53,818 nt of DNA from a virus (Duplodnaviria; Caudoviricetes), in IMG/VR virus record IMGVR_UViG_3300034072_000606, positions 1-53,818 of that record. One strand, 5' to 3'. The position numbers and the translations under genes were made by a program. The notes beneath the pieces were generated by a model. It had not been told where the DNA came from. It worked only from the letters and a program-made list of their open reading frames with translations, and searched no databases. Below are positions 7,817-51,077 of the stretch, piece by piece (within the stretch, counting starts at the first letter, position 1; each line of letters starts with the position of its first letter).

Positions 7817-8649
7817 GCCTTGCCAGTTGGGTAAACTGCGAGTAGGTCTTGGGCTCCCCAAGCGGCCAGCTCGCGGCGATGGTCCTGGGTGTCTTTCCCG
7901 ATGAAGTAATGACCCTTCCGGGCGCTCTTCCACTTACACAGGACGGTCTCAACCTCCTGGATGTTACAAAATCGGGAACTGGATTTGCCTTTGAAACCGG
8001 GGGCTAAAATCCCCGCGTAAGCATCAAGCAACATCTCAACAACTCTCTGAGGCGTCATACCCAAGTTGCCAGTAGGGTCGAAAATGGTTGACATCATTTC
8101 AGCCCCCTCTCGGGGGTCCTTGTAGAGCGTGACCAACTCCTCTGGAAACGTGATTGGAACGCCCAAAACACGCTCAAGCATATCAGCGGCCTTGAACGCG
8201 ATCCACGGGCCGAACTGAGGCCAGTCCATAGCCTTGTTGACCTGTTCAAGTGTCCGGCAACCCTCAAGGCTGATCACCGCCTCTTCAGGGTGATTGAACC
8301 GGGACCTAAGCCATTCAACGCTGTCAACGCATTTCTGGCCGCGCCAGTGCCGACGCTCGTGCGCTCTGGGCCAACGAGCGCCGCCGCCCGGGATGCCTTG
8401 GGATTGAGGCCCGCATCCATCCGGGTTTTCTGCGGCAAGATGAAGATATTGCCAGAACCGAGTGCCGGAGTGATCGCTGATCCAATAGCTCGCGCCGACC
8501 GAATAGCAGCACCAGTAGGCGAGCATAAAGCGACGAAGGCGCGAGCCCTTGACATCCCATTCCGTCAGGCCGACATAAAGCGGGTCATGGTCATTGGTAA
8601 GAATGAGTTTCCGGCCCCATTCAACGGGGTTGTTGATCAGGTCTGTCAC
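7813..8649 (-). CDS. aGPT-PPlase clade 2 (amino acid:DNA transferase)
   Basis: LI.T.D.DP.Y, AYWC.Y, RWPR..ERRHWRG, FGPWIAFK.ADM.ER, QEVETVLCKWKS. Confidence 0.87.
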   Translation of the reverse strand: MTDLINNPVEWGRKLILTNDHDPLYVGLTEWDVKGSRLRRFMLAYWCCYSVGASYWISDHSGTRFWQYLHLAAENPDGCGPQSQGIPGGGARWPRAHERRHWRGQKCVDSVEWLRSRFNHPEEAVISLEGCRTLEQVNKAMDWPQFGPWIAFKAADMLERVLGVPITFPEELVTLYKDPREGAEMMSTIFDPTGNLGMTPQRVVEMLLDAYAGILAPGFKGKSSSRFCNIQEVETVLCKWKSARKGHYFIGKDTQDHRRELAAWGAQDLLAVYPTGKA

Positions 8650-9479
8650 GTCAAAGCCTCCAATAGCTTGGCAGCGGCCCAGCCGGCAGCTGCGGTTCCG
8701 TTCTTCCCTCCGCCCGTCAGGCTCCAGAGCCCCGGGGCAACTTCTTCCAGCGCCGCCGGATCGCTTGTCTGGGCGAAGGGTCTGACGCCGATCCGAACCT
8801 CACCGCCGCCTTGACCGGCGAAGTCGGATATGCGCTTGGTGGATTGCTCTTCCCGCAACCCGTCCCAATTCTTCTCAAGGATCGCCGTGCCGTCCCCGGC
8901 CCAGTGGAAGCCGTCACAGGAGAACCGAACCAGCTGCTTGTACGGAGCCCAAACAGATATCCGGTTGTCTTCAACTTCCTTGAAGAGGCGCAGGCTCAAG
9001 CCGACCTTGCCGACGACCGGGACGCCGGTGATGAGCTGACGGGTCCAAGCGCCGCAGGCGACGATGACGTGTTTGGCGTTCGCGTGGTCAAGAGGGTTAT
9101 CGGGATTCAGAAACCTCACCCGATTGCCCCCGGGGTATGTCGAAACTTTTATTACCTTTCGCCCTATCCAATCAGGCCATTTCGCGTCCCGATCCATCAC
9201 CACGTCCGGGTTGATCCATTCCGCGTTCACGGAAACCGGGCCAGCTTTGAGCGAGACGGTGCGCAGACCATACAGCCTGTCTAGGAGCCTGAAAGATCGC
9301 TCCACGTTGTCCTTGCCCATCTTCTGGAGCCAGGACGGTTTCATCAGGCACCCGGCGGCGCGAGACCCGGAGCGGGGCCGACCGTCATCAATGATCAACA
9401 CGTCCATTCCTGCGTCCCGGAGCGCCGCCCCGGCTATGGAGCCGAAGAGGCCCCCGCCTACGATGATGACGTCACGCAC
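8646..9479 (-). CDS. FAD-dependent oxidoreductase (DAO/glycine-oxidase fold), candidate flavin-dependent C-N lyase acting on modified DNA
   Basis: VIIVGGGLFG FAD motif, GSRAAG, ACGAW, WAPYKQ, GVRP, TGGGKNG; GTGA-coupled to aGPT-PPlase2. Confidence 0.82.
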   Translation of the reverse strand: MRDVIIVGGGLFGSIAGAALRDAGMDVLIIDDGRPRSGSRAAGCLMKPSWLQKMGKDNVERSFRLLDRLYGLRTVSLKAGPVSVNAEWINPDVVMDRDAKWPDWIGRKVIKVSTYPGGNRVRFLNPDNPLDHANAKHVIVACGAWTRQLITGVPVVGKVGLSLRLFKEVEDNRISVWAPYKQLVRFSCDGFHWAGDGTAILEKNWDGLREEQSTKRISDFAGQGGGEVRIGVRPFAQTSDPAALEEVAPGLWSLTGGGKNGTAAAGWAAAKLLEALT

Positions 9480-9820
9480 TGTTGGTTCTCCTTTTCTGAC
9501 CTCCGGCGATCCATGCGCCGGGATTGGTTGATTTCCTTCGGGACGTATTCAAGGCAATCCGGGTTGACGCACAGGCTGAAGACGCACTTGTGATCCCGGT
9601 CGTGACCTTTAGGGAGCGGCCCCTTTTTCCCGATCACCTCACACGCGAAGCGATGAGCCCGGACGCGACCGATCTTGCGGTTGACATAGAATGTCCCGTA
9701 CCACTTCTTGTTTCCCTGACCCCGGCTACGAGCCCCTGTCCAGAACCAGCACCCGCAAGGGAGCTTGTCCACGTGCTTCATAAACCGATCTATTTCGGCT
9801 TGGGTTGCTTGGATGGTCAT
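9458..9820 (-). CDS. HNH endonuclease
   Basis: GCWFWTG, YG.F, RAHR, DHKC..SLCVNP.CL..V....N. Confidence 0.85.
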   Translation of the reverse strand: MTIQATQAEIDRFMKHVDKLPCGCWFWTGARSRGQGNKKWYGTFYVNRKIGRVRAHRFACEVIGKKGPLPKGHDRDHKCVFSLCVNPDCLEYVPKEINQSRRMDRRRSEKENQQCVTSSS

Positions 9821-36878: not shown

Positions 36879-37820
36879 TCAGATGCCGTCGCTGTAGCGC
36901 ACTTCCTTGGGCAGACGAATGTCCAGGGGACCCAGACGGAAGATGCCAGGGACCTTGTAGGTCAGGCCGACAACCTGAACGGGCAGGAAGCGGTGACGCA
37001 TTGGAATATGCATCTTGAGGACTTCGGGGCTGTTGCGGTAGGCAACCATGCGGGCCGTATTGCCGGCACCGGCGGTGTTGAGACCACGCATGCCGCGAAT
37101 GCGGAGCTGCTGACCGGTTTCAGCCGTGAAGACGTTCGCCCGCTGGAGAAATTCCAGAATGGTGAGCGTTCCGTTGCCGTCGCCGAGACGCTTGGAAGCG
37201 ATATACTGGAGCTTCAGGGAAGGCAGCAGGAGGGTGTCAGCCATAGCAATCTCGTTGGTGGCCGTGTAGACCCCGCTGAGAAGCTCGTTGACATCCGCCA
37301 AAATCTGGTCTTCCGTGGCCGTTGCCCAAGCACCGGTCGAAGCGGCGATTGCCGTGACAGATGCGTTGTTGAACAGACCCTTCCAGCCCTTTTCGGTGTC
37401 GCCGCTGAAGGCGATATTGTCCACGGTGCGTTCGTAAATCATACGAGCAGCCGCCGCCTTTTCGCCGGACAGGTTCATGCCGAGCATGAGAGCCTGATTG
37501 ACCTCTTCAAGGCCATAATCGTAGCCGATGCCGGCCATCTGGATCGCGGTCTCATCCTGCGCCAGCTGAGTGCCGACAACCGGGATATCGCTTGCGCGGT
37601 CGGCAATCCAGTCAGCCTTGCCGGTGACGTTCATGCTGTAGTACGTGACCGTTTTGATCCACTCCGGCGCGGAGTAATCAACCGGGATCAGGCCCGGGTA
37701 ACGGATCGCCGGGAAGCGGGTGCGGTAAACACCGGCTTCCACATAGGCGGTCTGCGATTCAACAAACCCAAGGTTTGCCTGCATCGCATCGCCGATCTGA
37801 AGCTGATTCTGCTGGAACAT
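36879..37820 (-). CDS. Major capsid protein (DUF2184-like)
   Basis: Y...E...A..LG..L...KA.AA, AF.GD......GLFN, T..EFL, RMVAY, P....Y.DGI. Confidence 0.88.
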   Translation of the reverse strand: MFQQNQLQIGDAMQANLGFVESQTAYVEAGVYRTRFPAIRYPGLIPVDYSAPEWIKTVTYYSMNVTGKADWIADRASDIPVVGTQLAQDETAIQMAGIGYDYGLEEVNQALMLGMNLSGEKAAAARMIYERTVDNIAFSGDTEKGWKGLFNNASVTAIAASTGAWATATEDQILADVNELLSGVYTATNEIAMADTLLLPSLKLQYIASKRLGDGNGTLTILEFLQRANVFTAETGQQLRIRGMRGLNTAGAGNTARMVAYRNSPEVLKMHIPMRHRFLPVQVVGLTYKVPGIFRLGPLDIRLPKEVRYSDGI

Positions 37821-37832
37821 GTGCTGCGCTCC

Positions 37833-38285
37833 TTACTGCGGCAGGTTGATGCGGATGCGGGCAAGCCCGTTCGCTGCGGCACCGGTGTCGAACACCGCCC
37901 CGGCGACCGCGATGACGCCAGCGGCGACGGCCTTGGTGCCGAAGAGGCCGGTGGCCACGGTGAGGGTGACATCGTCGCCTTCGACCACGGTGCTGTCCAC
38001 CTTGACCCAGATTGGGCCCTTGGTGATGATAGCCGCCGTGTCATTGGCCGGATAAACATCCGGGGACGAAGCGCGAGCGCCGGTGGCCTGCGAGCGGACG
38101 GTGATGCCGTCAACCCGGTCAACCGCAGCCTTCACAGAGTGCTGCTTGGCGCCCTTCTGGACCGCCTTGCCGAAACCGATTTCGGCGTCAACGGTGCGCG
38201 AAAGGATAGTGGCGGGCGACGTGTCCGCAACCTGACCTTCCTGCGCAACTTCGGGGTCGGTGTTGTAGTTTTCGATATACGGCAT
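37833..38285 (-). CDS. Capsid decoration / cement protein
   Basis: I.FG..V, G.IWV; between protease and capsid genes. Confidence 0.72.
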   Translation of the reverse strand: MPYIENYNTDPEVAQEGQVADTSPATILSRTVDAEIGFGKAVQKGAKQHSVKAAVDRVDGITVRSQATGARASSPDVYPANDTAAIITKGPIWVKVDSTVVEGDDVTLTVATGLFGTKAVAAGVIAVAGAVFDTGAAANGLARIRINLPQ

Positions 38286-38296
38286 GTCACGAACCC

Positions 38297-39460
38297 TCAG
38301 TTGGCGGACTGGCGATCAACGCCGGTCTGGTCGAAATGAAGAAGCTCATCGAACGCCTGCTGACGAGCCCGCTGGGCGTCGTTCATCTGAGCGTGATGGG
38401 CGACCGGCGACGGACGGGTGTCACCCATCCGGGCCTGCCGGAAGGTGTCCTGCGTCTGGGATGCCTCGTCGGCGAGAATGTCGAAGCGGGCGTCAATATA
38501 CGCCTGATCAGAGACGCGCTCAGCCGGGAGCTTGTCACCGAGCTTGGCCTTGACGACTGCCGCCTTGAGGGCTGCGTCAGAGAGACCGGCGGGCTTCACG
38601 TCCTGCGCGATCTTTGCCGCTGTCGCTTCCAGGGCAACGCGGTCAGCCACCAACTTGCCCAGAGCGTCGGGCGTGAGGACCTTGGAGGTGGCATCGTCAA
38701 GCTTCGCCTGAAGAGCGGAAATCGCCGCATCCTTTGCCTCCAGGTCCTTCTTGTTCTTGCCGTCCTTTTCGTTCATCTGGTCTTCGATCCGCTTGCGGTC
38801 GGCCAGAAGCTTTTCGATGGCCTGGGCACCCTGGTCCGTGGTTTCCACGGACAGCCCATCCACCATCACATTGCGCGTACCCATGGGTTTCTCCTTATCG
38901 TGCGCGATGATCGGGGCTGTGCCCCAGTGAGACGCATCGTCACCAATGCGTACATCCTTGCCGGCCCGACCCCGCTGAACAATCGCGACGTGGTTGGCTC
39001 GAATTTTGGTCTGCTTGGCCTGATAGGGCTTTCCATCCGGCGTGACACCGTCTTCCCATACCAAGTCGCAGGTGTAACCGGCGCTCAGCTCGCGCTTCCC
39101 GCTCTCCACCTTCTGGATTGATGCGCCGTCCGCCACCATGAGGCCGACACGCAGAAACTCGCCGTCTCGCCTGATCTCACCATCGGTCTGACCCCGGGCC
39201 AAGTCCTTCCAGTTGTCGGAAGTGACGGCGACTGAGGGGTGATCATCGGTGACGGGGCGGTGAGCAAACGAAGCCATTGCGGCGTCGTTGAAAACTTCTT
39301 CTTCAGGGCGATAGACGTCAACAACCTTCAGATCGGGACGCCCTAGCTCGCTGCCAAGGTACTGCTGAATGCCGGTGCGTGCGACCCGTGCGTCAGCGAC
39401 AAGGTATCCATCCTCACGGCGGCGGGTGCCTACAATCGCAACTGAGTCCGTAAACTGCAT
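38297..39460 (-). CDS. Prohead protease / scaffold (DUF2213-like)
   Basis: DGYL, ARTG.Q.Y, VYRP.EEVF, P.T..HP, ELS.GY, NHVA.V..GRAG; coiled-coil C-terminus. Confidence 0.88.
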   Translation of the reverse strand: MQFTDSVAIVGTRRREDGYLVADARVARTGIQQYLGSELGRPDLKVVDVYRPEEEVFNDAAMASFAHRPVTDDHPSVAVTSDNWKDLARGQTDGEIRRDGEFLRVGLMVADGASIQKVESGKRELSAGYTCDLVWEDGVTPDGKPYQAKQTKIRANHVAIVQRGRAGKDVRIGDDASHWGTAPIIAHDKEKPMGTRNVMVDGLSVETTDQGAQAIEKLLADRKRIEDQMNEKDGKNKKDLEAKDAAISALQAKLDDATSKVLTPDALGKLVADRVALEATAAKIAQDVKPAGLSDAALKAAVVKAKLGDKLPAERVSDQAYIDARFDILADEASQTQDTFRQARMGDTRPSPVAHHAQMNDAQRARQQAFDELLHFDQTGVDRQSAN

Positions 39461-39639
39461 CAGCTCCTCAGCCCCCTTCTCTGGAGGTAATCCAAAACAC
39501 GTTTCGTTCCTTGAGAGGTAACGGCGGCAACGTCTTGGGCTCCTGTTTTAGCGACAAACTGAACAGCCGTCAAGACCGTTGAAGGCTTCTTGACAGCCTC
39601 AACAATTGCTGTTCTGCGTTCTGCGCACCTACAAGCCAT
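39460..39639 (-). CDS. Small hypothetical protein (MACRCAERR)
   Basis: TGATG overlaps at both ends. Confidence 0.55.
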   Translation of the reverse strand: MACRCAERRTAIVEAVKKPSTVLTAVQFVAKTGAQDVAAVTSQGTKRVLDYLQRRGLRS

Positions 39640-40451
39640 CAAAACCTCACTATACCTTGAGCGATACAACGGCACTGGATTGGTTGCCCAGGGGGCAGTC
39701 CGTCCTCCGCTCCGGTCGGCTCACCATACTTGTACTGCTTGCCTTCAAGATCACGGTGACGGGGGCGAACGCGCTCATCAGCGCTGGTCCTCCAGATGTA
39801 TTCATCAATCCCGGCCTGCTCATGACGAATGCGGTTTAGATCGGCTGTGAGCTTCCCGGTCTGGTCTCGGGCAATGAGACGGGCGCGGCTATCGCCGATG
39901 TCAAGCTGCTTCTTGAGGCGCTTCTGAAGCTCAGCAACAGATTCACCGTTGATGAGGGCGTTGGTTGTCTCCGTCGCAACACGCTTCAGGATATCTTCGG
40001 CCATGCCCCGGATAAGGGAGGCATTGCGAAGCGCCGCCGCTTCAAGATAGGCGTCAAGGTCCTCTTCGGCGACAACGCTGCTCAAGTCTACACTGAAGGC
40101 TCGCCGCGCCGCCCCCATCCAAGCCTTGGTATGGCGACGACCTTCCAGCTTCAGGAGCTGACTGACCTGTTGCGAAGCGCGACGGATCATAGCGCCGACA
40201 AGCAGACGAAGAGCGTTGAAGCTATCCTCATCCGCGTCGGTCACGAGCCGCGTCTTGTACTTCGGGATGATGATTTCCCGGAGCCCTTGGGCGATGGTCT
40301 GTTCAACCTCGCGTAGCTGGGCCAAGTAGCTCTTCTCAAAGCCCAAAGGGGCGACGATGACGGGTGCGAGCGCCGTTGTCCCGGGGCGGCGACCCCGGAC
40401 CATGTTGGCCAGTCGGTAGGACTGAGGCGTTACGGCGTCACATGCGAACAT
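39639..40451 (-). CDS. Head morphogenesis protein (Mu gpF / SPP1 gp7-like)
   Basis: RARLIARDQ, Y.W....DERVRP.H..L.G, PG..I.CRC. Confidence 0.88.
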   Translation of the reverse strand: MFACDAVTPQSYRLANMVRGRRPGTTALAPVIVAPLGFEKSYLAQLREVEQTIAQGLREIIIPKYKTRLVTDADEDSFNALRLLVGAMIRRASQQVSQLLKLEGRRHTKAWMGAARRAFSVDLSSVVAEEDLDAYLEAAALRNASLIRGMAEDILKRVATETTNALINGESVAELQKRLKKQLDIGDSRARLIARDQTGKLTADLNRIRHEQAGIDEYIWRTSADERVRPRHRDLEGKQYKYGEPTGAEDGLPPGQPIQCRCIAQGIVRF

Positions 40452-40639
40452 TACTTGTGCCTTGGTCGGGGATCGGGCTTATGGGTCCAGTGGATATTCA
40501 TAGGGTTGAAGGCGTCGGAAGGGAAAGGCTTTTCAGCTGGGGCCGATGAGGAGCGGCGCTTTGCCAACTCCCTGACGATGACCTCCGGGGCATTTTCCAG
40601 GTTGGCCTCGTCAATCGGCCTCTTACGCATCACCGCCAT
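40451..40639 (-). CDS. Small hypothetical protein
   Basis: Overlaps the portal stop and the gpF start. Confidence 0.45.
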   Translation of the reverse strand: MAVMRKRPIDEANLENAPEVIVRELAKRRSSSAPAEKPFPSDAFNPMNIHWTHKPDPRPRHK

Positions 40640-42473
40640 CGCTCACAACCTTCTCGCGCCAATCACCGGTCTCGATTTCCTCATAAATCTCAGGACCCAA
40701 GATGATCTTGCCCTGCCAAGGCTTGACGTTCACCAGATCAAGTTCACCGCCGCGCAGGCTGATCGATATGTGCGGCTGGTAATCGGGGTAATCGCTTGTG
40801 CCGCCGATGTCCTTAGCGTAGCCGTGACGCCACTGAAGCTCGTTGGAGGCGAAGAGGAGCACCAGAACGTCGCCCGCGTCACCAAACTTCTCGCTGATAC
40901 GCGGTCCGCCCTCCGGGATTTCCAGCTGGGCGTCCCAAGGCTGACCCATCTTCATCCAGTCGATAGGCGTCTTGCTGTAGATGATGGTGACGTGCATGCT
41001 TTCCGGGGCGTAAACGTCACTGACGCCCTGATCCTTGTACCACTTGATGATCTCATCTGCGTTGACGACATCACGGCGCATGTAAAGGGTGCGCGGGGCT
41101 GCGTCACCGACCGGTATCTTGGGCTGCGGGTTCTCAAGATTGTTGACTGCGGCTTCCTTCGACCGCATTTCAAGGTCGAATTCAGGCAACTTGTCGCCGT
41201 TCTCCTTGAGAAGGTCGCCAAGGCCGGGGTAAACCCCATCTTCCACCAGCTGATTGCCGACGCTCGTGCGCATTTCTTCAGCAGCGAAGAGACCCAGGCT
41301 GTTGACGATGTTGGCGGTTTCGGCCTTGAGCTTCCCGATTTCAGCCCGCTCCTTCTCACTCATCTGCTCCAGAGGAGACCAAGTGTAGAAAATTTCATCG
41401 GGGCGCGATCCTAGCGCCGACCGGATGAGAGCTTCATCGAGCTTGTACATCGCTGGCTGGATTTCCAGCGTCTGAATGGACGTGACCCGGTCATAATAGT
41501 TCTTCATGTCGTGTTCCCCGGTCGAATTGAGACCGGAGGGGGATTGCCCAACAAGGCGCGTCAACGGGATATCCGAAGCGCCTGAAACGAGAATCAAGAA
41601 CTGCTGGAGAACGTCCGGGAGAGCCGCGAAGTTGATCTGCTTGCGGTCGTATTCCTCATCAGCATCCGTGATGAGGGCCTTGCTGACGGACTTGCCGATG
41701 TTGGCGAGTGAGAAGCGGTCGAGGAGCTTCTGTCGGTAGGGAGCGGCTGAGAGCTGCTCCATCAGGTCCTGAATCTTGAAGACGTCAACGTTGGCTTCGA
41801 AGACAAGACTTGCGATGTTTGCTGCTGTGCTGTCAGTGTTGGCAATCGCCGTGTAGATGGACTGAAGCACGCTATCGCCCCAGCCGGTCGCGGTCACGTT
41901 GCCAATCGGGTTCCACGGATCGGGGAGCGGGTCGCCGACCTGAACAACCAAGCGCGAGGGGTGAATGGTCGTGAAGTCCCGGGCGTTGCTGATCGTGTAA
42001 TCGACCGGCATGCCGTAATGCTCCAGGGTCGGGTCAATCTCCAGCTCACCGGCGATCATCTCCCGGCGGCTCATCACGGTGAGATACTTGATCCCGCCCT
42101 TCTTGATGCCCTCAAAATCAAACTCCTTGGACGCATCACCCCCGTCACCGATGTAGATAGCTGCGCCGCCCCAGAGGCGGGCGAGGGTCTTACACTGAAG
42201 GATTTTCTGCTTGAGGCCCAAGCGGCGCTCTTCAGCCTCGATCAGAGTGATCTGCGACTGATCGGCCTGCCAGTCTCTCCACTTGCGAACGGCGTCCAGA
42301 GCCGGGATATTGACAATCTTCTTCGCCAACCACGTGTTGCGGTAGGCATTGTGAAGCTGAACGTCACTGAGGATCAAGTTTCCGTAAAACACCGCCGCCG
42401 ACTTATCGACAGTCGGATCACCCATGCCGGTGATGAGTGAACGGAGGCTGTCAGCAGTCGGAAGGGTTGTCAT
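40623..42473 (-). CDS. Portal protein (DUF1073-like) fused to a C-terminal Acb1-like 2H phosphodiesterase
   Basis: Portal motifs W.A...V..PA.DA.R.W, ARL.GG, IHPSRL, IPLTRL.G.SP.G...TGE.D..NYYD; C-terminal HVTIIYS and YQPHISIS (two HxT/S motifs). Confidence 0.9.
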   Translation of the reverse strand: MTTLPTADSLRSLITGMGDPTVDKSAAVFYGNLILSDVQLHNAYRNTWLAKKIVNIPALDAVRKWRDWQADQSQITLIEAEERRLGLKQKILQCKTLARLWGGAAIYIGDGGDASKEFDFEGIKKGGIKYLTVMSRREMIAGELEIDPTLEHYGMPVDYTISNARDFTTIHPSRLVVQVGDPLPDPWNPIGNVTATGWGDSVLQSIYTAIANTDSTAANIASLVFEANVDVFKIQDLMEQLSAAPYRQKLLDRFSLANIGKSVSKALITDADEEYDRKQINFAALPDVLQQFLILVSGASDIPLTRLVGQSPSGLNSTGEHDMKNYYDRVTSIQTLEIQPAMYKLDEALIRSALGSRPDEIFYTWSPLEQMSEKERAEIGKLKAETANIVNSLGLFAAEEMRTSVGNQLVEDGVYPGLGDLLKENGDKLPEFDLEMRSKEAAVNNLENPQPKIPVGDAAPRTLYMRRDVVNADEIIKWYKDQGVSDVYAPESMHVTIIYSKTPIDWMKMGQPWDAQLEIPEGGPRISEKFGDAGDVLVLLFASNELQWRHGYAKDIGGTSDYPDYQPHISISLRGGELDLVNVKPWQGKIILGPEIYEEIETGDWREKVVSDGGDA

Positions 42474-42477
42474 GCGG

Positions 42478-44175
42478 TCATCCCACGTTGTCGAGCGAAT
42501 AGCGGCTGGAGACAGGCCAATAGGCCATCACAACCGCGTCTGCCATATTCGGGGATCGCGTCCCCTCCGGTGTCTTGTTCACCATCAACTTTAACCGACC
42601 CGGGCTCAAAGAGGAAGTAGCTTGGCTGAGCTCTTTGATGAGCTGTGCCAATTCTTCAGTCGTGAAGCTTGCGCTGTCAATGCTGATCAGCTCGTCTGTA
42701 TCGATATCCACGCCTTCGGTCAAGGCGCGGTAGGTCTTCCAGAACCGGGCGCGCAGCTCCCACCAAGCTTGGGCCTTGATGTTGAGATAATGGTCCTTGA
42801 TGAGGGGAGAGCCCTTGTCGCCCCTGATCAGGCGCTTCTCCGGGAAGAGGGGAGGCAGGCCCGCGTTCCAAGCCTCAACCTTCAGGCCGGTCGGCCACTG
42901 AATCTTGCTGGTGTTGGTCTCGCCGCTCTCGTCTAGCCCCCGGAGGCGGTTGAACTCAGCCTTACAACCCGCACCTACACCGATACAGTCATACATCAGC
43001 GAGGTGTCGTGAGGGCGCTTGAGATATTGGATCGCACGGCGAGCCGTCACGCCGGTATCGACCTGACCCCAGACCTTGACGCCTTTCAAGACGACGCCCT
43101 TGCGCTGTGCCAAGGCGTTCCGGTCCCCGCCTCCGTCCGCCACGTCTAGGCCCGCCATCCACTTCCCATCGTCCGTGAACTGGAGCTTGATGTGAGCGTC
43201 AACCGCAGCGCGCACCCAATCATTCGGGATGATGATGCCTTCAACGGAGGCGTTATAGTCGCGGTCCACCTCTTGGGCGAAGATGTGAAGCAGGCCCTCA
43301 TCCTCTGCCTTCTTGCGGCGTTCCTCGTACCATTCGATGGTCTTGGCCGGATGATGGCGCCAATCGAAGATGAAGATATTGGCCTTGCCCTTGACGACTG
43401 GTGCGCCGACCTCCCACTCAACCCCAGCTTCCCGGCGGCGGTGGAACACATTGCCGGTGCCGTTGACTGAGCTGATGTCGATCTGGACGCGGGTGTTGTC
43501 GCCCAAAGCAGCCTCAATCAAGTCGGGGCGCTCATAGTGGGCGCTCTCGTCCTTGAAGTAAATGCGCTTGCGACCGCCACGACCAATGCTGTCGCCCGCC
43601 TCGCCGGTGATGCTCGCCCCGTTCGCCGGGTTGAGCACCCTCATATAGGTCATGTGGTCCTTGAAGCTGAACCCCGGGGGGAGAAATTCCGGGGGCAGAC
43701 CCCGGATGACAGCCCTGATCTTCTCAAAGATGCTGTCCATGTCCCCGATCTTATCAACAAGCTGCTCCTTTCGGGAGCCCCAGCCGATTGACATGCCATC
43801 ATAGAACAACCACAGGTGGACGGATACAGCGACCGATAGCCAAGTTGCGCCCGCGTCACGGCACTTCTCAATCAGGCCGTCCGCTTCGCCCTCAAGACAG
43901 GCGTAAATGAACTGCGTAAGATCGGCCTGACGGGGGAACATGATGAAGGGCATGCGGGTGATCTTCCCCGGCACGCCCGCGTTACGTGGATCGTAGGTGT
44001 CAACCCAGTCGTTGATGAACTCAACTGGGTGATCCTTGTAGTAAATCTTGGCGGCTTGAAGCATAGCCGGGTTGGACCGGAACAACAGCAGCTGTTTCTG
44101 GCGCCAAGCGAACAACTTGACGTAGTTCGGGGGCCAAGCGGTCGTCGCTGATAGGTCCTTGACGTGAGCGTTCAT
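42478..44175 (-). CDS. terL: Terminase large subunit
   Basis: EKCRDAGATW (Walker A variant), GRGGR..Y..DESAH, GLDVAD.G.D, YDCIGVG, SPN.ADA. Confidence 0.93.
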   Translation of the reverse strand: MNAHVKDLSATTAWPPNYVKLFAWRQKQLLLFRSNPAMLQAAKIYYKDHPVEFINDWVDTYDPRNAGVPGKITRMPFIMFPRQADLTQFIYACLEGEADGLIEKCRDAGATWLSVAVSVHLWLFYDGMSIGWGSRKEQLVDKIGDMDSIFEKIRAVIRGLPPEFLPPGFSFKDHMTYMRVLNPANGASITGEAGDSIGRGGRKRIYFKDESAHYERPDLIEAALGDNTRVQIDISSVNGTGNVFHRRREAGVEWEVGAPVVKGKANIFIFDWRHHPAKTIEWYEERRKKAEDEGLLHIFAQEVDRDYNASVEGIIIPNDWVRAAVDAHIKLQFTDDGKWMAGLDVADGGGDRNALAQRKGVVLKGVKVWGQVDTGVTARRAIQYLKRPHDTSLMYDCIGVGAGCKAEFNRLRGLDESGETNTSKIQWPTGLKVEAWNAGLPPLFPEKRLIRGDKGSPLIKDHYLNIKAQAWWELRARFWKTYRALTEGVDIDTDELISIDSASFTTEELAQLIKELSQATSSLSPGRLKLMVNKTPEGTRSPNMADAVVMAYWPVSSRYSLDNVG

Positions 44176-44507: not shown

Positions 44508-44755
44508 TGCCCGTCTGCCTTCTTGGTGATAAGCCTCCGCAGCCTAGCAATCTCGCGCTCCATACCGTCGATGAAGGCTACAGCGTCGTGAACCTTCGTC
44601 CCCTCGCTGACGGCGCGGCAAAGTCCGCCTTGGGCTAAAGCCCCGGGGACCGGCGGAACGGAGTAGACTGCGAGAATGAGGACCTTGACGCCTTCCTTCT
44701 CTGCCAGCGCTAGGCTGGCGTTGATTTCGTTCTCAAGGTTCTGTTCAAAGCTCAT
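44504..44755 (-). CDS. Hypothetical protein
   Basis: ATGA-coupled to terS. Confidence 0.6.
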   Translation of the reverse strand: MSFEQNLENEINASLALAEKEGVKVLILAVYSVPPVPGALAQGGLCRAVSEGTKVHDAVAFIDGMEREIARLRRLITKKADGQ

Positions 44756-45297
44756 TTGTTCCCGTCCCGGGTCTGCGCGTAAAGGTCTGCCGCCTCTTCA
44801 GGCGACATGTCGGTGTTGATAGCCTGGATCGGCCCGCCGCCGGGGCCGCTGATTTCCGACTTGTCGGCTAGGCCGAGATCGCGGCTGATGATGTTGGCGT
44901 TCAGGAGACCTGCTGCTGCGGCAACAAACTTTTGATCCCGGATAGTTTGTTCAGCCCATTCTATGACAGACAACAAGTCAGGTCTTGGGTTGATCGATCC
45001 CGGAGTGCGCCACTCACGCCATGTGGTGGCCGCGATATCGATGAACAGGCACAAGCCGCCTATCGTGAAAGCCCGGGTCTTCGGAACACTCTCCAGCCAA
45101 CTGGAACCCTCGTATGAGAACGGCTTAGCCTCCATCAAGGGGTTCTCTTCACACCAAGTGAAGTAGTCCTCGCAGGCTTCCCGAAGCTTTTGAGCCCCTT
45201 CCTCACCCACCGGGAAAGTCGGGTGAACCCCATGCCGGCTTCGCTGCTTCCAAAACTGATTTCCAATACCGAATTTACTGCTCAATGTCGCCTCCAC
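44752..45297 (-). CDS. terS: Terminase small subunit (P22 gp3-like)
   Basis: GNQFW..RS.HG, C..YF.W.E.NPL, RA.T..GLCLF.DI, QKF..AAA.LLNANII.RDLGL. True start may be TTG 45285. Confidence 0.88.
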   Translation of the reverse strand: MEATLSSKFGIGNQFWKQRSRHGVHPTFPVGEEGAQKLREACEDYFTWCEENPLMEAKPFSYEGSSWLESVPKTRAFTIGGLCLFIDIAATTWREWRTPGSINPRPDLLSVIEWAEQTIRDQKFVAAAAGLLNANIISRDLGLADKSEISGPGGGPIQAINTDMSPEEAADLYAQTRDGNK

Positions 45298-50291: not shown

Positions 50292-51077
50292 TCACCGTTC
50301 CTCCTCATTCATGCCCAGAACCCCGCTGAGGTCTGGCTTGACGTAGTTCGGTCCCTTGACGACCCGGCCCGCGTCGCAGAGGATCGGCTTGCCGTCCGGT
50401 CCCAGCTTCGACATATTGGAGGCGTGAACCTCCGCATAGGCCGCGAGCTTGTAGTGGCCGAGACCCAGCGTCAGGTAGGTCCCATCGCAGACGTAGGACA
50501 TATCAGTCAGCGCGTCCAAGCACTCCACGATATCCCGGTTGAGAATGCCCTCAGCGAGCTCAGCAAGCTCTTCCTGGCAAAGCTGAAGGCGAATGAGGGC
50601 GAGCGAGCCTCCCTCATCGTTATACTCAAGGCACTCAGCCGCGTAAGCCTTGAGGTCCTCGCCTAGCTTCGCCGCCGCGCTCATATAGTCGCGAAGGTGG
50701 ACAGCGGCCACAGGGCCGTATTCCGGCACTTCAGGGGTCGGATTGATATGCGCCCCGAATGCCCCGGCGAACTCAGCGACGTGATCCAGACCCGGATCGA
50801 AGTAATGACCGTTGGAGGGCCGAACCTCCACCCGCGTTCCCGCCGAGACGATGCGCAGGGACGGGTCCAGGGTCAACGCGGCATTCAGCGCTGTAGCCAG
50901 ACGCAGGATGCGCCCTTGGGCCGTCTCCTTGCCCCGTACTTCATGGACCTCGTCGTGGAGTTTGAGAAGCATTTCGATGTCAGCCGCGTCCTGACGGCTT
51001 CCCACGGCTCGCTCTGCTTCGATATTTGCCTCAACCCGTTTCCGGGCTTCAGGGGTTAGTTTGATTGATGGTGTCAT
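50292..51077 (-). CDS. MazG / PRA-PH-like dNTP pyrophosphohydrolase
   Basis: VAEF..AF, QEELAEL, DALTD.SYV..G, EVH.SNMSK...G.P.....G.V.KG..Y..PDL. Confidence 0.85.
   Translation of the reverse strand: MTPSIKLTPEARKRVEANIEAERAVGSRQDAADIEMLLKLHDEVHEVRGKETAQGRILRLATALNAALTLDPSLRIVSAGTRVEVRPSNGHYFDPGLDHVAEFAGAFGAHINPTPEVPEYGPVAAVHLRDYMSAAAKLGEDLKAYAAECLEYNDEGGSLALIRLQLCQEELAELAEGILNRDIVECLDALTDMSYVCDGTYLTLGLGHYKLAAYAEVHASNMSKLGPDGKPILCDAGRVVKGPNYVKPDLSGVLGMNEEER

Follow-up and report, generated by a model that had tools for sequence, protein, structure and literature searches.

An Acb1-family phosphodiesterase domain at the C terminus of a phage portal protein, behind a putative capsid-type protease site

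What does an enzyme domain of the Acb1 family, known from proteins directed against the cyclic oligonucleotide-based antiphage signaling system (CBASS), do at the C terminus of a portal protein, and does it stay there once the head has matured? This question is raised by the IMG/VR virus record IMGVR_UViG_3300034072_000606, the 53,818 bases of which (roughly 54 kb, analyzed as a whole and referred to here as the window) represent a myophage without host DNA, with a CheckV completeness of 98% and nearly all genes on the minus strand. Within its head-morphogenesis module, the open reading frame (ORF) between the genes for the large terminase subunit (TerL) and the MuF-type minor head protein joins an effector and a head protein in one chain. 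We propose that the product consists of a DUF1073-type portal, a flexible linker, and a presumably active Acb1-family 2H phosphodiesterase, the activity of which is deduced from sequence and fold, and that the enzyme may be cut free inside the head and carried into the next host. An earlier examination of the bare DNA (hereafter the sequence-only reading) had suggested both the fusion and a protease site ahead of the enzyme.

The coding part of the gene (positions 40626-42473, minus strand) translates as one open frame of 616 residues, followed by a stop codon at 40623-40625, and the last 160 residues include the strings HVTIIYSK, VLVLLFASNELQWRHGYAKDIGGTSDYPDYQPHISIS, and GDW. Along its whole length, the protein resembles known portals. 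The full-length model retrieved 8hds_A first in a Foldseek search (E 1.2e-40), followed by the portals of E217, T1, FCWL1, Pa193, and XM1, and the sequence of the Pam3 portal 8HDS matches residues 3-612 (E 1.8e-241). PHROG 146, labeled 'portal protein', matches residues 6-607 with profile positions 23-586 of 587; because this profile spans the Acb1 part, the fusion belongs to the family profile itself. PF23474 (Acb1) matches the C-terminal part at residues 461-607 with E 5.1e-36 and 124 bits (cut-off 27), an alignment that takes in profile positions 1-143 of 144, and a genome-wide profile search found a single Acb1 copy (127.9 bits). A sequence search of the PDB returned Acb1 of phage FBB1 (7T26/7T27, E 3.4e-11), and BLASTP against T4 gene 57B (NP_049750.1, the accession named as Acb1 by Hobbs et al., PMC9117128) gave E 3e-15 with 36% identity across 90 residues. 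The AlphaFold2 model of the last 160 residues predicts a compact 2H fold with a predicted local distance difference test score (pLDDT) of 91.9 and a predicted template modeling score of 0.84. When this model was compared with known structures, as the sequence-only reading had proposed, Foldseek placed 7t26 (E 1.1e-9, template modeling score (TM) 0.66/0.76) and 7t27 first, and then the phosphodiesterase of Burkholderia phage BCSR5 and LigT-type 2H enzymes. The BCSR5 enzyme was released in November 2025 (2025-11) in open-lid and closed-lid states as PDB 9Q2Y and 9Q2G (TM about 0.65, 15% identity), and a literature search turned up no publication on it. Taken by sequence and predicted fold together, it is confirmed that the portal C terminus carries a full-length Acb1-family 2H phosphodiesterase domain, with a match far beyond chance. 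The sequence-only reading was right on this fusion, borne out by PF23474, the sequence and fold matches to 7T26, and the T4 57B alignment; the positions it gave for the domain (40623-41110) are correct within a few bases (40626-41105 with D457 included), and the T4 gp57B strings it quoted are present in NP_049750.1. A separate Acb1 protein made from an internal start at M465 was considered and rejected: M465 lies behind Y464, within the first strand, so a product starting there would lack a conserved binding residue.

The portal-Acb1 fusion is a common and already described architecture. Confirmed fusions occur in at least 595 IMG/VR stretches, and a tblastn search of the phage collection gave 32 records with a query coverage of 80% or more, among them phages of Rhizobium, Synechococcus, Pseudomonas, Aminobacter, and Sinorhizobium, whereas coverage ends near residue 424 in the relatives RHph_N28_2, Kintu, and CUB19, which are without the Acb1 domain. 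The domain alone, searched against 1.84 billion representative proteins, found 1,949 clusters at E <= 1e-3, and local probes detected portal plus Acb1 in 110 of the 150 best representatives. A Pfam run on the 48 long or unexplained members of these 150 placed the domain on portals of three families (PF06381, PF06074, and PF04860) and at the N terminus of prohead proteases (DUF2213 twice, Peptidase_S78_2 six times), and found it combined with ADP-ribosyltransferase (ART; eight portal forms), Zeta-toxin (two), and pyridine-nucleotide oxidoreductase (one) modules and, in three giant proteins, with NUDIX. The same two-domain protein is present over its whole length, with the same head-gene order and the same Asp|Ala (D|A) junction, in Pam3 (portal gp3, 8HDS; Yang et al. 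2023, PMC9942802), RHph_TM26, RHEph04-06, Ssp-JY39, phiPSA1, and Aminobacter phage Erebus; the window protein is 58-62% identical to those of Pam3 and TM26 (tblastn) and does not differ from them in kind. The Pam3 paper (PMC9942802) does not mention the enzyme domain. The architecture had been noticed elsewhere: in the relevant passages, Iyer et al. described 2H domains fused to MuF or portal proteins in 2017 and suggested that they degrade nucleotides of nucleotide-activated defense (PMC5512222), and in 2022 they proposed that such fusions point to head packaging and injection against SMODS, cyclic-mononucleotide, and CRISPR signaling (PMC9503650). The sequence-only reading had noted that the fusion is not new, which holds beyond database labels, since the idea of an injected virion cargo is itself to be found in these passages (PMC5512222, PMC9503650). 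They share the architecture and the proposal of packaging, injection, and signal degradation with the present work but give neither a release mechanism nor a cleavage site; the junction shared with the capsid protein and the tie to DUF2213 come from the present analysis. The main article by Hobbs et al. (PMC9117128) and 4,845 characters of its supplement do not contain the word 'portal', and a limited literature search on Acb1 and portal turned up no publication that treats Acb1-portal fusions as such. The fusion as such therefore adds little, being frequent, labeled by Pfam and PHROGs, and furnished with a likely published role since 2017.

Is the domain a working enzyme? Conservation was counted over 151 relatives, namely the window protein and the 150 best representatives from the domain search, and the functional residues of Hobbs et al. 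were mapped through an alignment of T4 57B with them. Both catalytic HxT/S motifs, described as intact in the sequence-only reading, are found so (H494-V-T496 and H568-I-S570; Table 1), and serine replaces the second catalytic threonine in 15 of the 151. Altogether, 8 of 9 functional residues of Acb1 are matched, including three of the four base-stacking aromatics (Y464, Y562, and W605); at the position of the fourth, W74, the alignment, which is the basis of this comparison, places E528, and the invariant W506 might fill its place. The exact partner of the adenine-reading E141 is uncertain because an invariant E595 lies three residues upstream of E598. The lid segment with W605 is present and was modeled with lower pLDDT. 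The window domain thus resembles Acb1 of T4 (57B) and of Erwinia phage FBB1 (7T26/7T27, PMC9117128) in family (PF23474), 2H fold, HxT/HxT(S) tetrad, base-stacking Tyr, adenine-reading Glu, and C-terminal lid Trp. It differs from them in being a portal C terminus, whereas those are free-standing proteins of ~150 residues, the T4 gene adjoining ipI in an anti-defense island as Hobbs et al. describe it (PMC9117128); from T4 Acb1 it differs further in its limited identity and in E528 for W74. Purifying selection on the active site across the 151 representatives argues for a working enzyme, and we consider an active Acb1-type enzyme very probable on the grounds of sequence and model.

Its main substrate might differ from that of Acb1, and be RNA 2',3'-cyclic phosphate ends, 2'-5' oligoadenylate-like signals, or RNA in a Usb1-like cleavage; such a substrate would be compatible with either a cleaved or a tethered domain. 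For the portal- and MuF-fused 2H domains, Iyer et al. 2017 (PMC5512222) named RNase action and the breakdown of 2'-5' oligoadenylate as options in the passage concerned, the domain matches PHROG 755, labeled 'RNA ligase', as RefSeq still annotates T4 57B, and LigT-type enzymes come next among the fold matches. Residues R467, N471, W506, R525, and R549 are invariant features peculiar to the clade, and the replacement of W74 by a conserved acidic residue implies a different binding pocket and perhaps a different substrate. On the other side stand the best family, sequence, and fold matches, all of which are to Acb1, the eight functional residues kept, with the adenine-reading Glu and the lid Trp among them, and the report by Hobbs et al. 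that nine further acb1 homologues assayed all cut 3'3'-cyclic GMP-AMP (3'3'-cGAMP) and cAAA (PMC9117128). A different main substrate therefore appears rather improbable to us. Acb1 does not cut cyclic tetra-adenylate (cA4) according to the same authors (PMC9117128), so among the signals of type III CRISPR only those of the cyclic tri-adenylate (cA3) type are expected as targets.

Whether the enzyme leaves the portal is a question for the junction ahead of it. Among the 151 relatives, the linker is hypervariable in sequence and length, and at the end of its predicted-disordered stretch sits an x-x-Asp|Ala motif, D457|A458 in the window protein, that matches the motif of a mapped capsid cleavage site. 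D457 is invariant in 58/58 full-length fusions and is among merely 18 invariant columns of that alignment. In a sample of 84 related loci (80 from IMG/VR and four phage records; statistics not corrected for relatedness), the junction was recovered in 80, all with Asp in the position ahead of the cut (P1). The residue follows the context of the fusion: Asp in 110 of the 112 fusions to Portal_3 and in the two to DUF2213, Lys in all six S78_2-protease fusions and in three of five Portal_Mu fusions, and Arg in the single PF04860 fusion. Because it varies with the head module, the Acb1 fold does not require it. The sequence-only reading had placed the cut at PVGD/AA; the putative D|A site has gained support from the invariance of D457, the D|A of the capsid protein, and the homology to phage TLS, whereas a full motif of the [IV]-G-D type was not upheld. 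A D|A behind the Acb1 domain was also considered as a general rule for multi-module relatives and dropped, being near the domain in 3 of 18 inspected (P0083, P0069, and P0112).

The link to capsid maturation comes from the capsid protein of the same phages. The x-x-D|A motif follows a short N-terminal capsid leader in the window, Pam3, RHph_TM26, RHEph04, and phiPSA1; capsid N termini were recovered in 68 of the 84 loci, with D-[AM] in 68/68 and leaders mostly of 5-11 residues. In 47 unique portal/capsid pairs, P1 is Asp at both sites in every pair and the residue behind the cut (P1') is Ala at both in 46. P2 is the same at the two sites in 14 of the 47 pairs against 8.1 expected by shuffling (p 0.012, relatedness uncorrected). 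The experimental anchor is the T1-like phage TLS, the portal, gp33, and gp36 of which belong to the same three families as their counterparts in the window (PF06381, PF09979, and PF09950); the DUF2213 protein of the window (38297-39460) matches gp33 with a phmmer E of 4.6e-19. The TLS virion capsid protein begins with ASDMGIW by Edman degradation (PMC11447400, in the part concerned), and in the TLS genome this string is preceded by ...GAKND. When 63 unique capsid proteins were aligned with that of TLS, D32|A33 of TLS fell in invariant Asp (64/64) and Ala (63/64) columns, those of D11|A12 in the window. The leader is 32 residues long in TLS by the RefSeq start, compared with 11 in the window, and the TLS paper surmises in the passage concerned that 45 residues are removed (PMC11447400). 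Unlike the window, TLS has a portal of 435 residues without an Acb1 domain. We infer from sequence that D457|A458 is homologous to a protease site mapped by experiment solely in the TLS capsid protein, and the DUF2213 protein is a candidate enzyme for the D|A cuts. A literature search on DUF2213 protease and capsid found nothing on capsid processing in this family. As to other virions, the E217 paper reports capsid residues 1-65 as invisible and the Pa193 paper portal residues 1-93 as undetected, and the Pam3 papers hold no peptide-level data on virion proteins.

The Pam3 virion also bears on the fate of the domain. Of the 621 residues of the portal sequence, the model 8hds_A comprises 442, and the matches listed for the domain model do not include 8HDS despite the ~60% identity of the Pam3 domain, from which we conclude that the mature portal does not carry the domain in ordered form. 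Its absence from the virion model fits a cleaved or a flexible domain alike.

These data suggest the following course of events. Twelve enzyme copies would be placed in each procapsid because portal C termini point into the capsid. With its x-x-Asp|Ala, the linker would offer the DUF2213 prohead protease the motif that it would use for trimming the capsid protein as well and, given this shared motif, maturation would most likely cut at D457|A458, with computed products of a 50.5-kDa portal and a 159-residue enzyme of 17.9 kDa and isoelectric point 4.6. Up to twelve free enzymes (A458-A616), too large to leak, would remain in the head, exit together with the DNA when the particle infects its next host, and act on cyclic di- and trinucleotide signals that contain adenine (CBASS, possibly cA3), hydrolyzing them ahead of or during their synthesis by the host. 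What we infer comprises portal cleavage, retention of the enzyme in the head, its ejection, and its substrate range. The recurrence of the domain on proteins of the capsid interior, portals as well as prohead proteases, beside ART, Zeta-toxin, and NUDIX modules is in keeping with this scheme. A comparable cargo logic is known from T4, the internal proteins of which have a short N-terminal targeting peptide that attaches to the scaffold core and a motif with Glu as its last residue; in the window, the portal itself would serve as the carrier, with a dose of at most twelve, and Asp is the last residue of the motif. According to the summary by Iyer et al. (PMC5512222), Alt and the internal proteins of T4 enter the head, are cut by the prohead protease gp21, and are injected with the DNA, and ART modules of the Alt-like type follow Acb1 on some of the portal relatives.

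Several points weigh against this explanation, in addition to the altered binding pocket discussed above. Edman degradation mapped the cut in a capsid protein, that of the relative TLS, and in no portal. A flexibly tethered domain would be as invisible in a twelvefold-symmetric (C12) map as a cleaved one. D457-A458 lies, in the model, directly ahead of the first strand of the domain, and its conservation could be structural within the clade. Relatedness inflates all of the counts, and domain subclades travel with their fusion partners, which confounds the context dependence of residue 457. The covariation of portal and capsid sites shows no excess at P3 and P4 in the 47 unique pairs, P2 alone being weakly shared. 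A fuller [IV]-G-D motif was tried and rejected: it occurs 6 times in 1586 residues of four head proteins against 13 times in 14464 residues (p 0.0035), but the comparison is post hoc, two of the six matches lie inside the portal fold, and across phages only D|A holds. The [IV]GD site of MuF is inside the MuF domain, may be structural, and was not used as evidence. With regard to the later steps, late proteins often trigger CBASS, and early delivery is thus not obviously needed. A folded 18-kDa protein would moreover have to unfold to pass the ~40 Å tail channel (Pam3 paper, PMC9942802). Because the mapped cut is that of a relative's capsid protein, and because of relatedness, the tether alternative, and the position of D457-A458 next to the first strand, we consider cleavage at D457|A458 probable and no more than that. 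On balance, we lean slightly toward the whole explanation of release and injection, whereas ejection of the enzyme and activity early in infection appear doubtful.

A domain that stays on the portal and acts in the producing cell would account for part of these observations. Portal chains made late, twelve per progeny particle and either unassembled or in the course of assembly, would hydrolyze CBASS signals when late proteins trigger them, the fusion would set timing and dose, and the copies in the virion would be a by-product. The gene indeed lies in the late head module, in the interval from TerL to MuF, and it holds the sole Acb1 copy of a 98%-complete genome, from which it follows that any late anti-CBASS activity must come from the portal-Acb1 protein; a flexible tether explains the residues missing from 8HDS equally well, and the Pam3 paper (PMC9942802) reports no cleavage, which also counts against release. 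Such a permanent tether would leave unexplained the invariance of D457 just where a hypervariable linker ends, its switch to Lys in the S78_2-protease contexts, the resemblance of the junction to a mapped capsid cleavage motif, and the repeated fusion of the domain to the N terminus of prohead proteases. We hold this alternative to be unlikely in its pure form, but late action on the portal and cleavage may both be true, the uncleaved protein acting before assembly. It is still less plausible, to the point of being very improbable, that the domain is a catalytically irrelevant appendage, such as a plug or a DNA-contacting extension of the crown that serves packaging. Portal barrels and crowns touch DNA at the place of the domain (Pam3 paper, PMC9942802), and portals tolerate big C-terminal extensions, as in Pa193 with its portal sequence of 765 residues; yet 149-151 of the 151 representatives retain each His and each Thr/Ser of the tetrad, RHph_N28_2, Kintu, CUB19, and TLS manage without the domain, and it is not ordered in the Pam3 virion model.

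If release from the portal at the D|A junction is taken as the working explanation, it could have a wider meaning. In the very large group of Pam3-like, T1-like, and Rhizobium myophages, an Asp|Ala code of DUF2213-type proteases might serve generally to release cargo, the portal loading exactly twelve enzyme modules (Acb1, and ART, Zeta kinase, or others in relatives) that are cut free for injection, a generalization that we offer tentatively and rate at somewhat less than an even chance. If it were true, the Lys at the junction in S78-type phages would mean that the junction residue reveals the protease specificity of uncharacterized head modules. If the cut is real, the DUF2213 proteases, a family that has received little study, would gain a rule for where they cut, and phages would have a second route, besides targeting peptides of the T4 type, for loading a fixed dose of counter-defense enzyme into a virion. 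Tying the D|A junction to an Edman-mapped cut turns the question of a tethered, free, or injected enzyme into a simple test on cultured phages, including Pam3, the structure of which has been solved by cryo-EM. The positions of the features discussed are collected in Table 1.

Table 1. Head-module genes of the window, parts of the portal-Acb1 protein, and counterparts of T4 Acb1 residues (positions in the window; counts over the 151 relatives)
Feature	Position	Strand	Basis or remark
TerS	44752-45297	-	Head module
Terminase large subunit TerL	42478-44175	-	PHROG 2, E 8.5e-19; position as TerL in Pam3 and RHph_TM26
Portal-Acb1 gene, 616 residues, 68.4 kDa	40623-42473	-	Single ORF between TerL and MuF
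Portal core, Phage_portal_3/DUF1073, residues 39-388	41310-42359	-	PF06381, E 2.1e-103
Disordered linker end, residues 444-456 (NNLENPQPKIPVG)	41106-41144	-	pLDDT < 50 at 444-446 and 448-456, full-length model
D457|A458, proposed prohead-protease site	41100-41105	-	Conservation, capsid motif, TLS homology
Acb1-type 2H phosphodiesterase domain, residues 458-616, 159 residues	40626-41102	-	PF23474, domain model, Foldseek
First catalytic motif, H494-V-T496	40986-40994	-	Aligns with T4 Acb1 H44, T46; H 151/151, T 150/151
Second catalytic motif, H568-I-S570	40764-40772	-	Aligns with T4 H113, T115; H 150/151, T or S 149/151
Y464, for T4 Y12			151/151
Y562, for T4 F107			Y, F, or W in 122/151; H in 27 more
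E598, for T4 E141			E in 118/151
W605, for T4 W147			W in 89/130 having a residue there
E528, for T4 W74 (no match)			E or D in 142/151
62-residue ORF between portal and MuF	40451-40639	-	No PHROG match; overlaps last 17 bases of portal gene
MuF-type minor head protein	39639-40451	-	PF04233, E 2.7e-21; PHROG 324 'head morphogenesis'
71-residue ORF between MuF and protease	39460-39675	-	No PHROG match
DUF2213 head-maturation protease/scaffold protein	38297-39460	-	PF09979, E 4e-58, residues 14-174; PHROG 530 'head maturation protease', E 5e-103
Cement protein	37833-38285	-	Head module
Major capsid protein	36879-37820	-	PF09950, E 1e-78; Pam3 gp7 8HDT, E 3e-151
D11|A12, predicted capsid maturation site	37785-37790	-	Alignment with Edman-mapped TLS site

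Some further features of these proteins and their surroundings were recorded. Residues 172-175 of the DUF2213 protein read R-I-G-D, directly behind the DUF2213 domain; the motif is kept in nearly all relatives recovered and was not found in TLS gp33. It may be where the protein cuts itself to separate protease from scaffold, or it may belong to the fold, and it was not counted as evidence. At the place of the 62-residue ORF there is no annotated gene in Pam3, whereas RHph_TM26 has a small hypothetical gene behind the portal. RHph_TM26 (8122-9774) and RHEph04 (7946-9592) have an additional gene of ~550 codons in the interval between portal and protease, annotated in RHEph04 as a lysophospholipase L1-like esterase, and neither the window nor Pam3 has one. 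Outside the head module, positions 50292-51077 (minus strand) encode a 261-residue protein that adjoins the primase and has a C-terminal match to MazG-like nucleotide pyrophosphohydrolases (PHROG 671, E 8e-30), which may be a second nucleotide-directed function of this phage.

In Synechococcus phage Yong-M3-232 (OM868076.1, 1450-2144), a tandem duplication of ~42 residues, comprising the linker end and the first Acb1 residues, breaks the portal-Acb1 gene into a truncated portal coding sequence and a 183-residue coding sequence that starts with the linker, keeps ...LGD|A, and contains the complete Acb1 domain. The gene is unbroken in its relative Ssp-JY40, and the break could be a natural split or an assembly artifact. 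Finally, a regular-expression search found the motif Q-P-R-x-P-x-G...G-G-Q-F/W or H-P-R-G-x-x-G-x-F/W in 11 of the 151 proteins, including P0022, P0069, P0077, P0088, P0109, P0112, P0138, and P0143; in multi-module forms it lies 15-50 residues behind Acb1, ahead of the ART or Zeta module, and could be an anchoring or processing signal.

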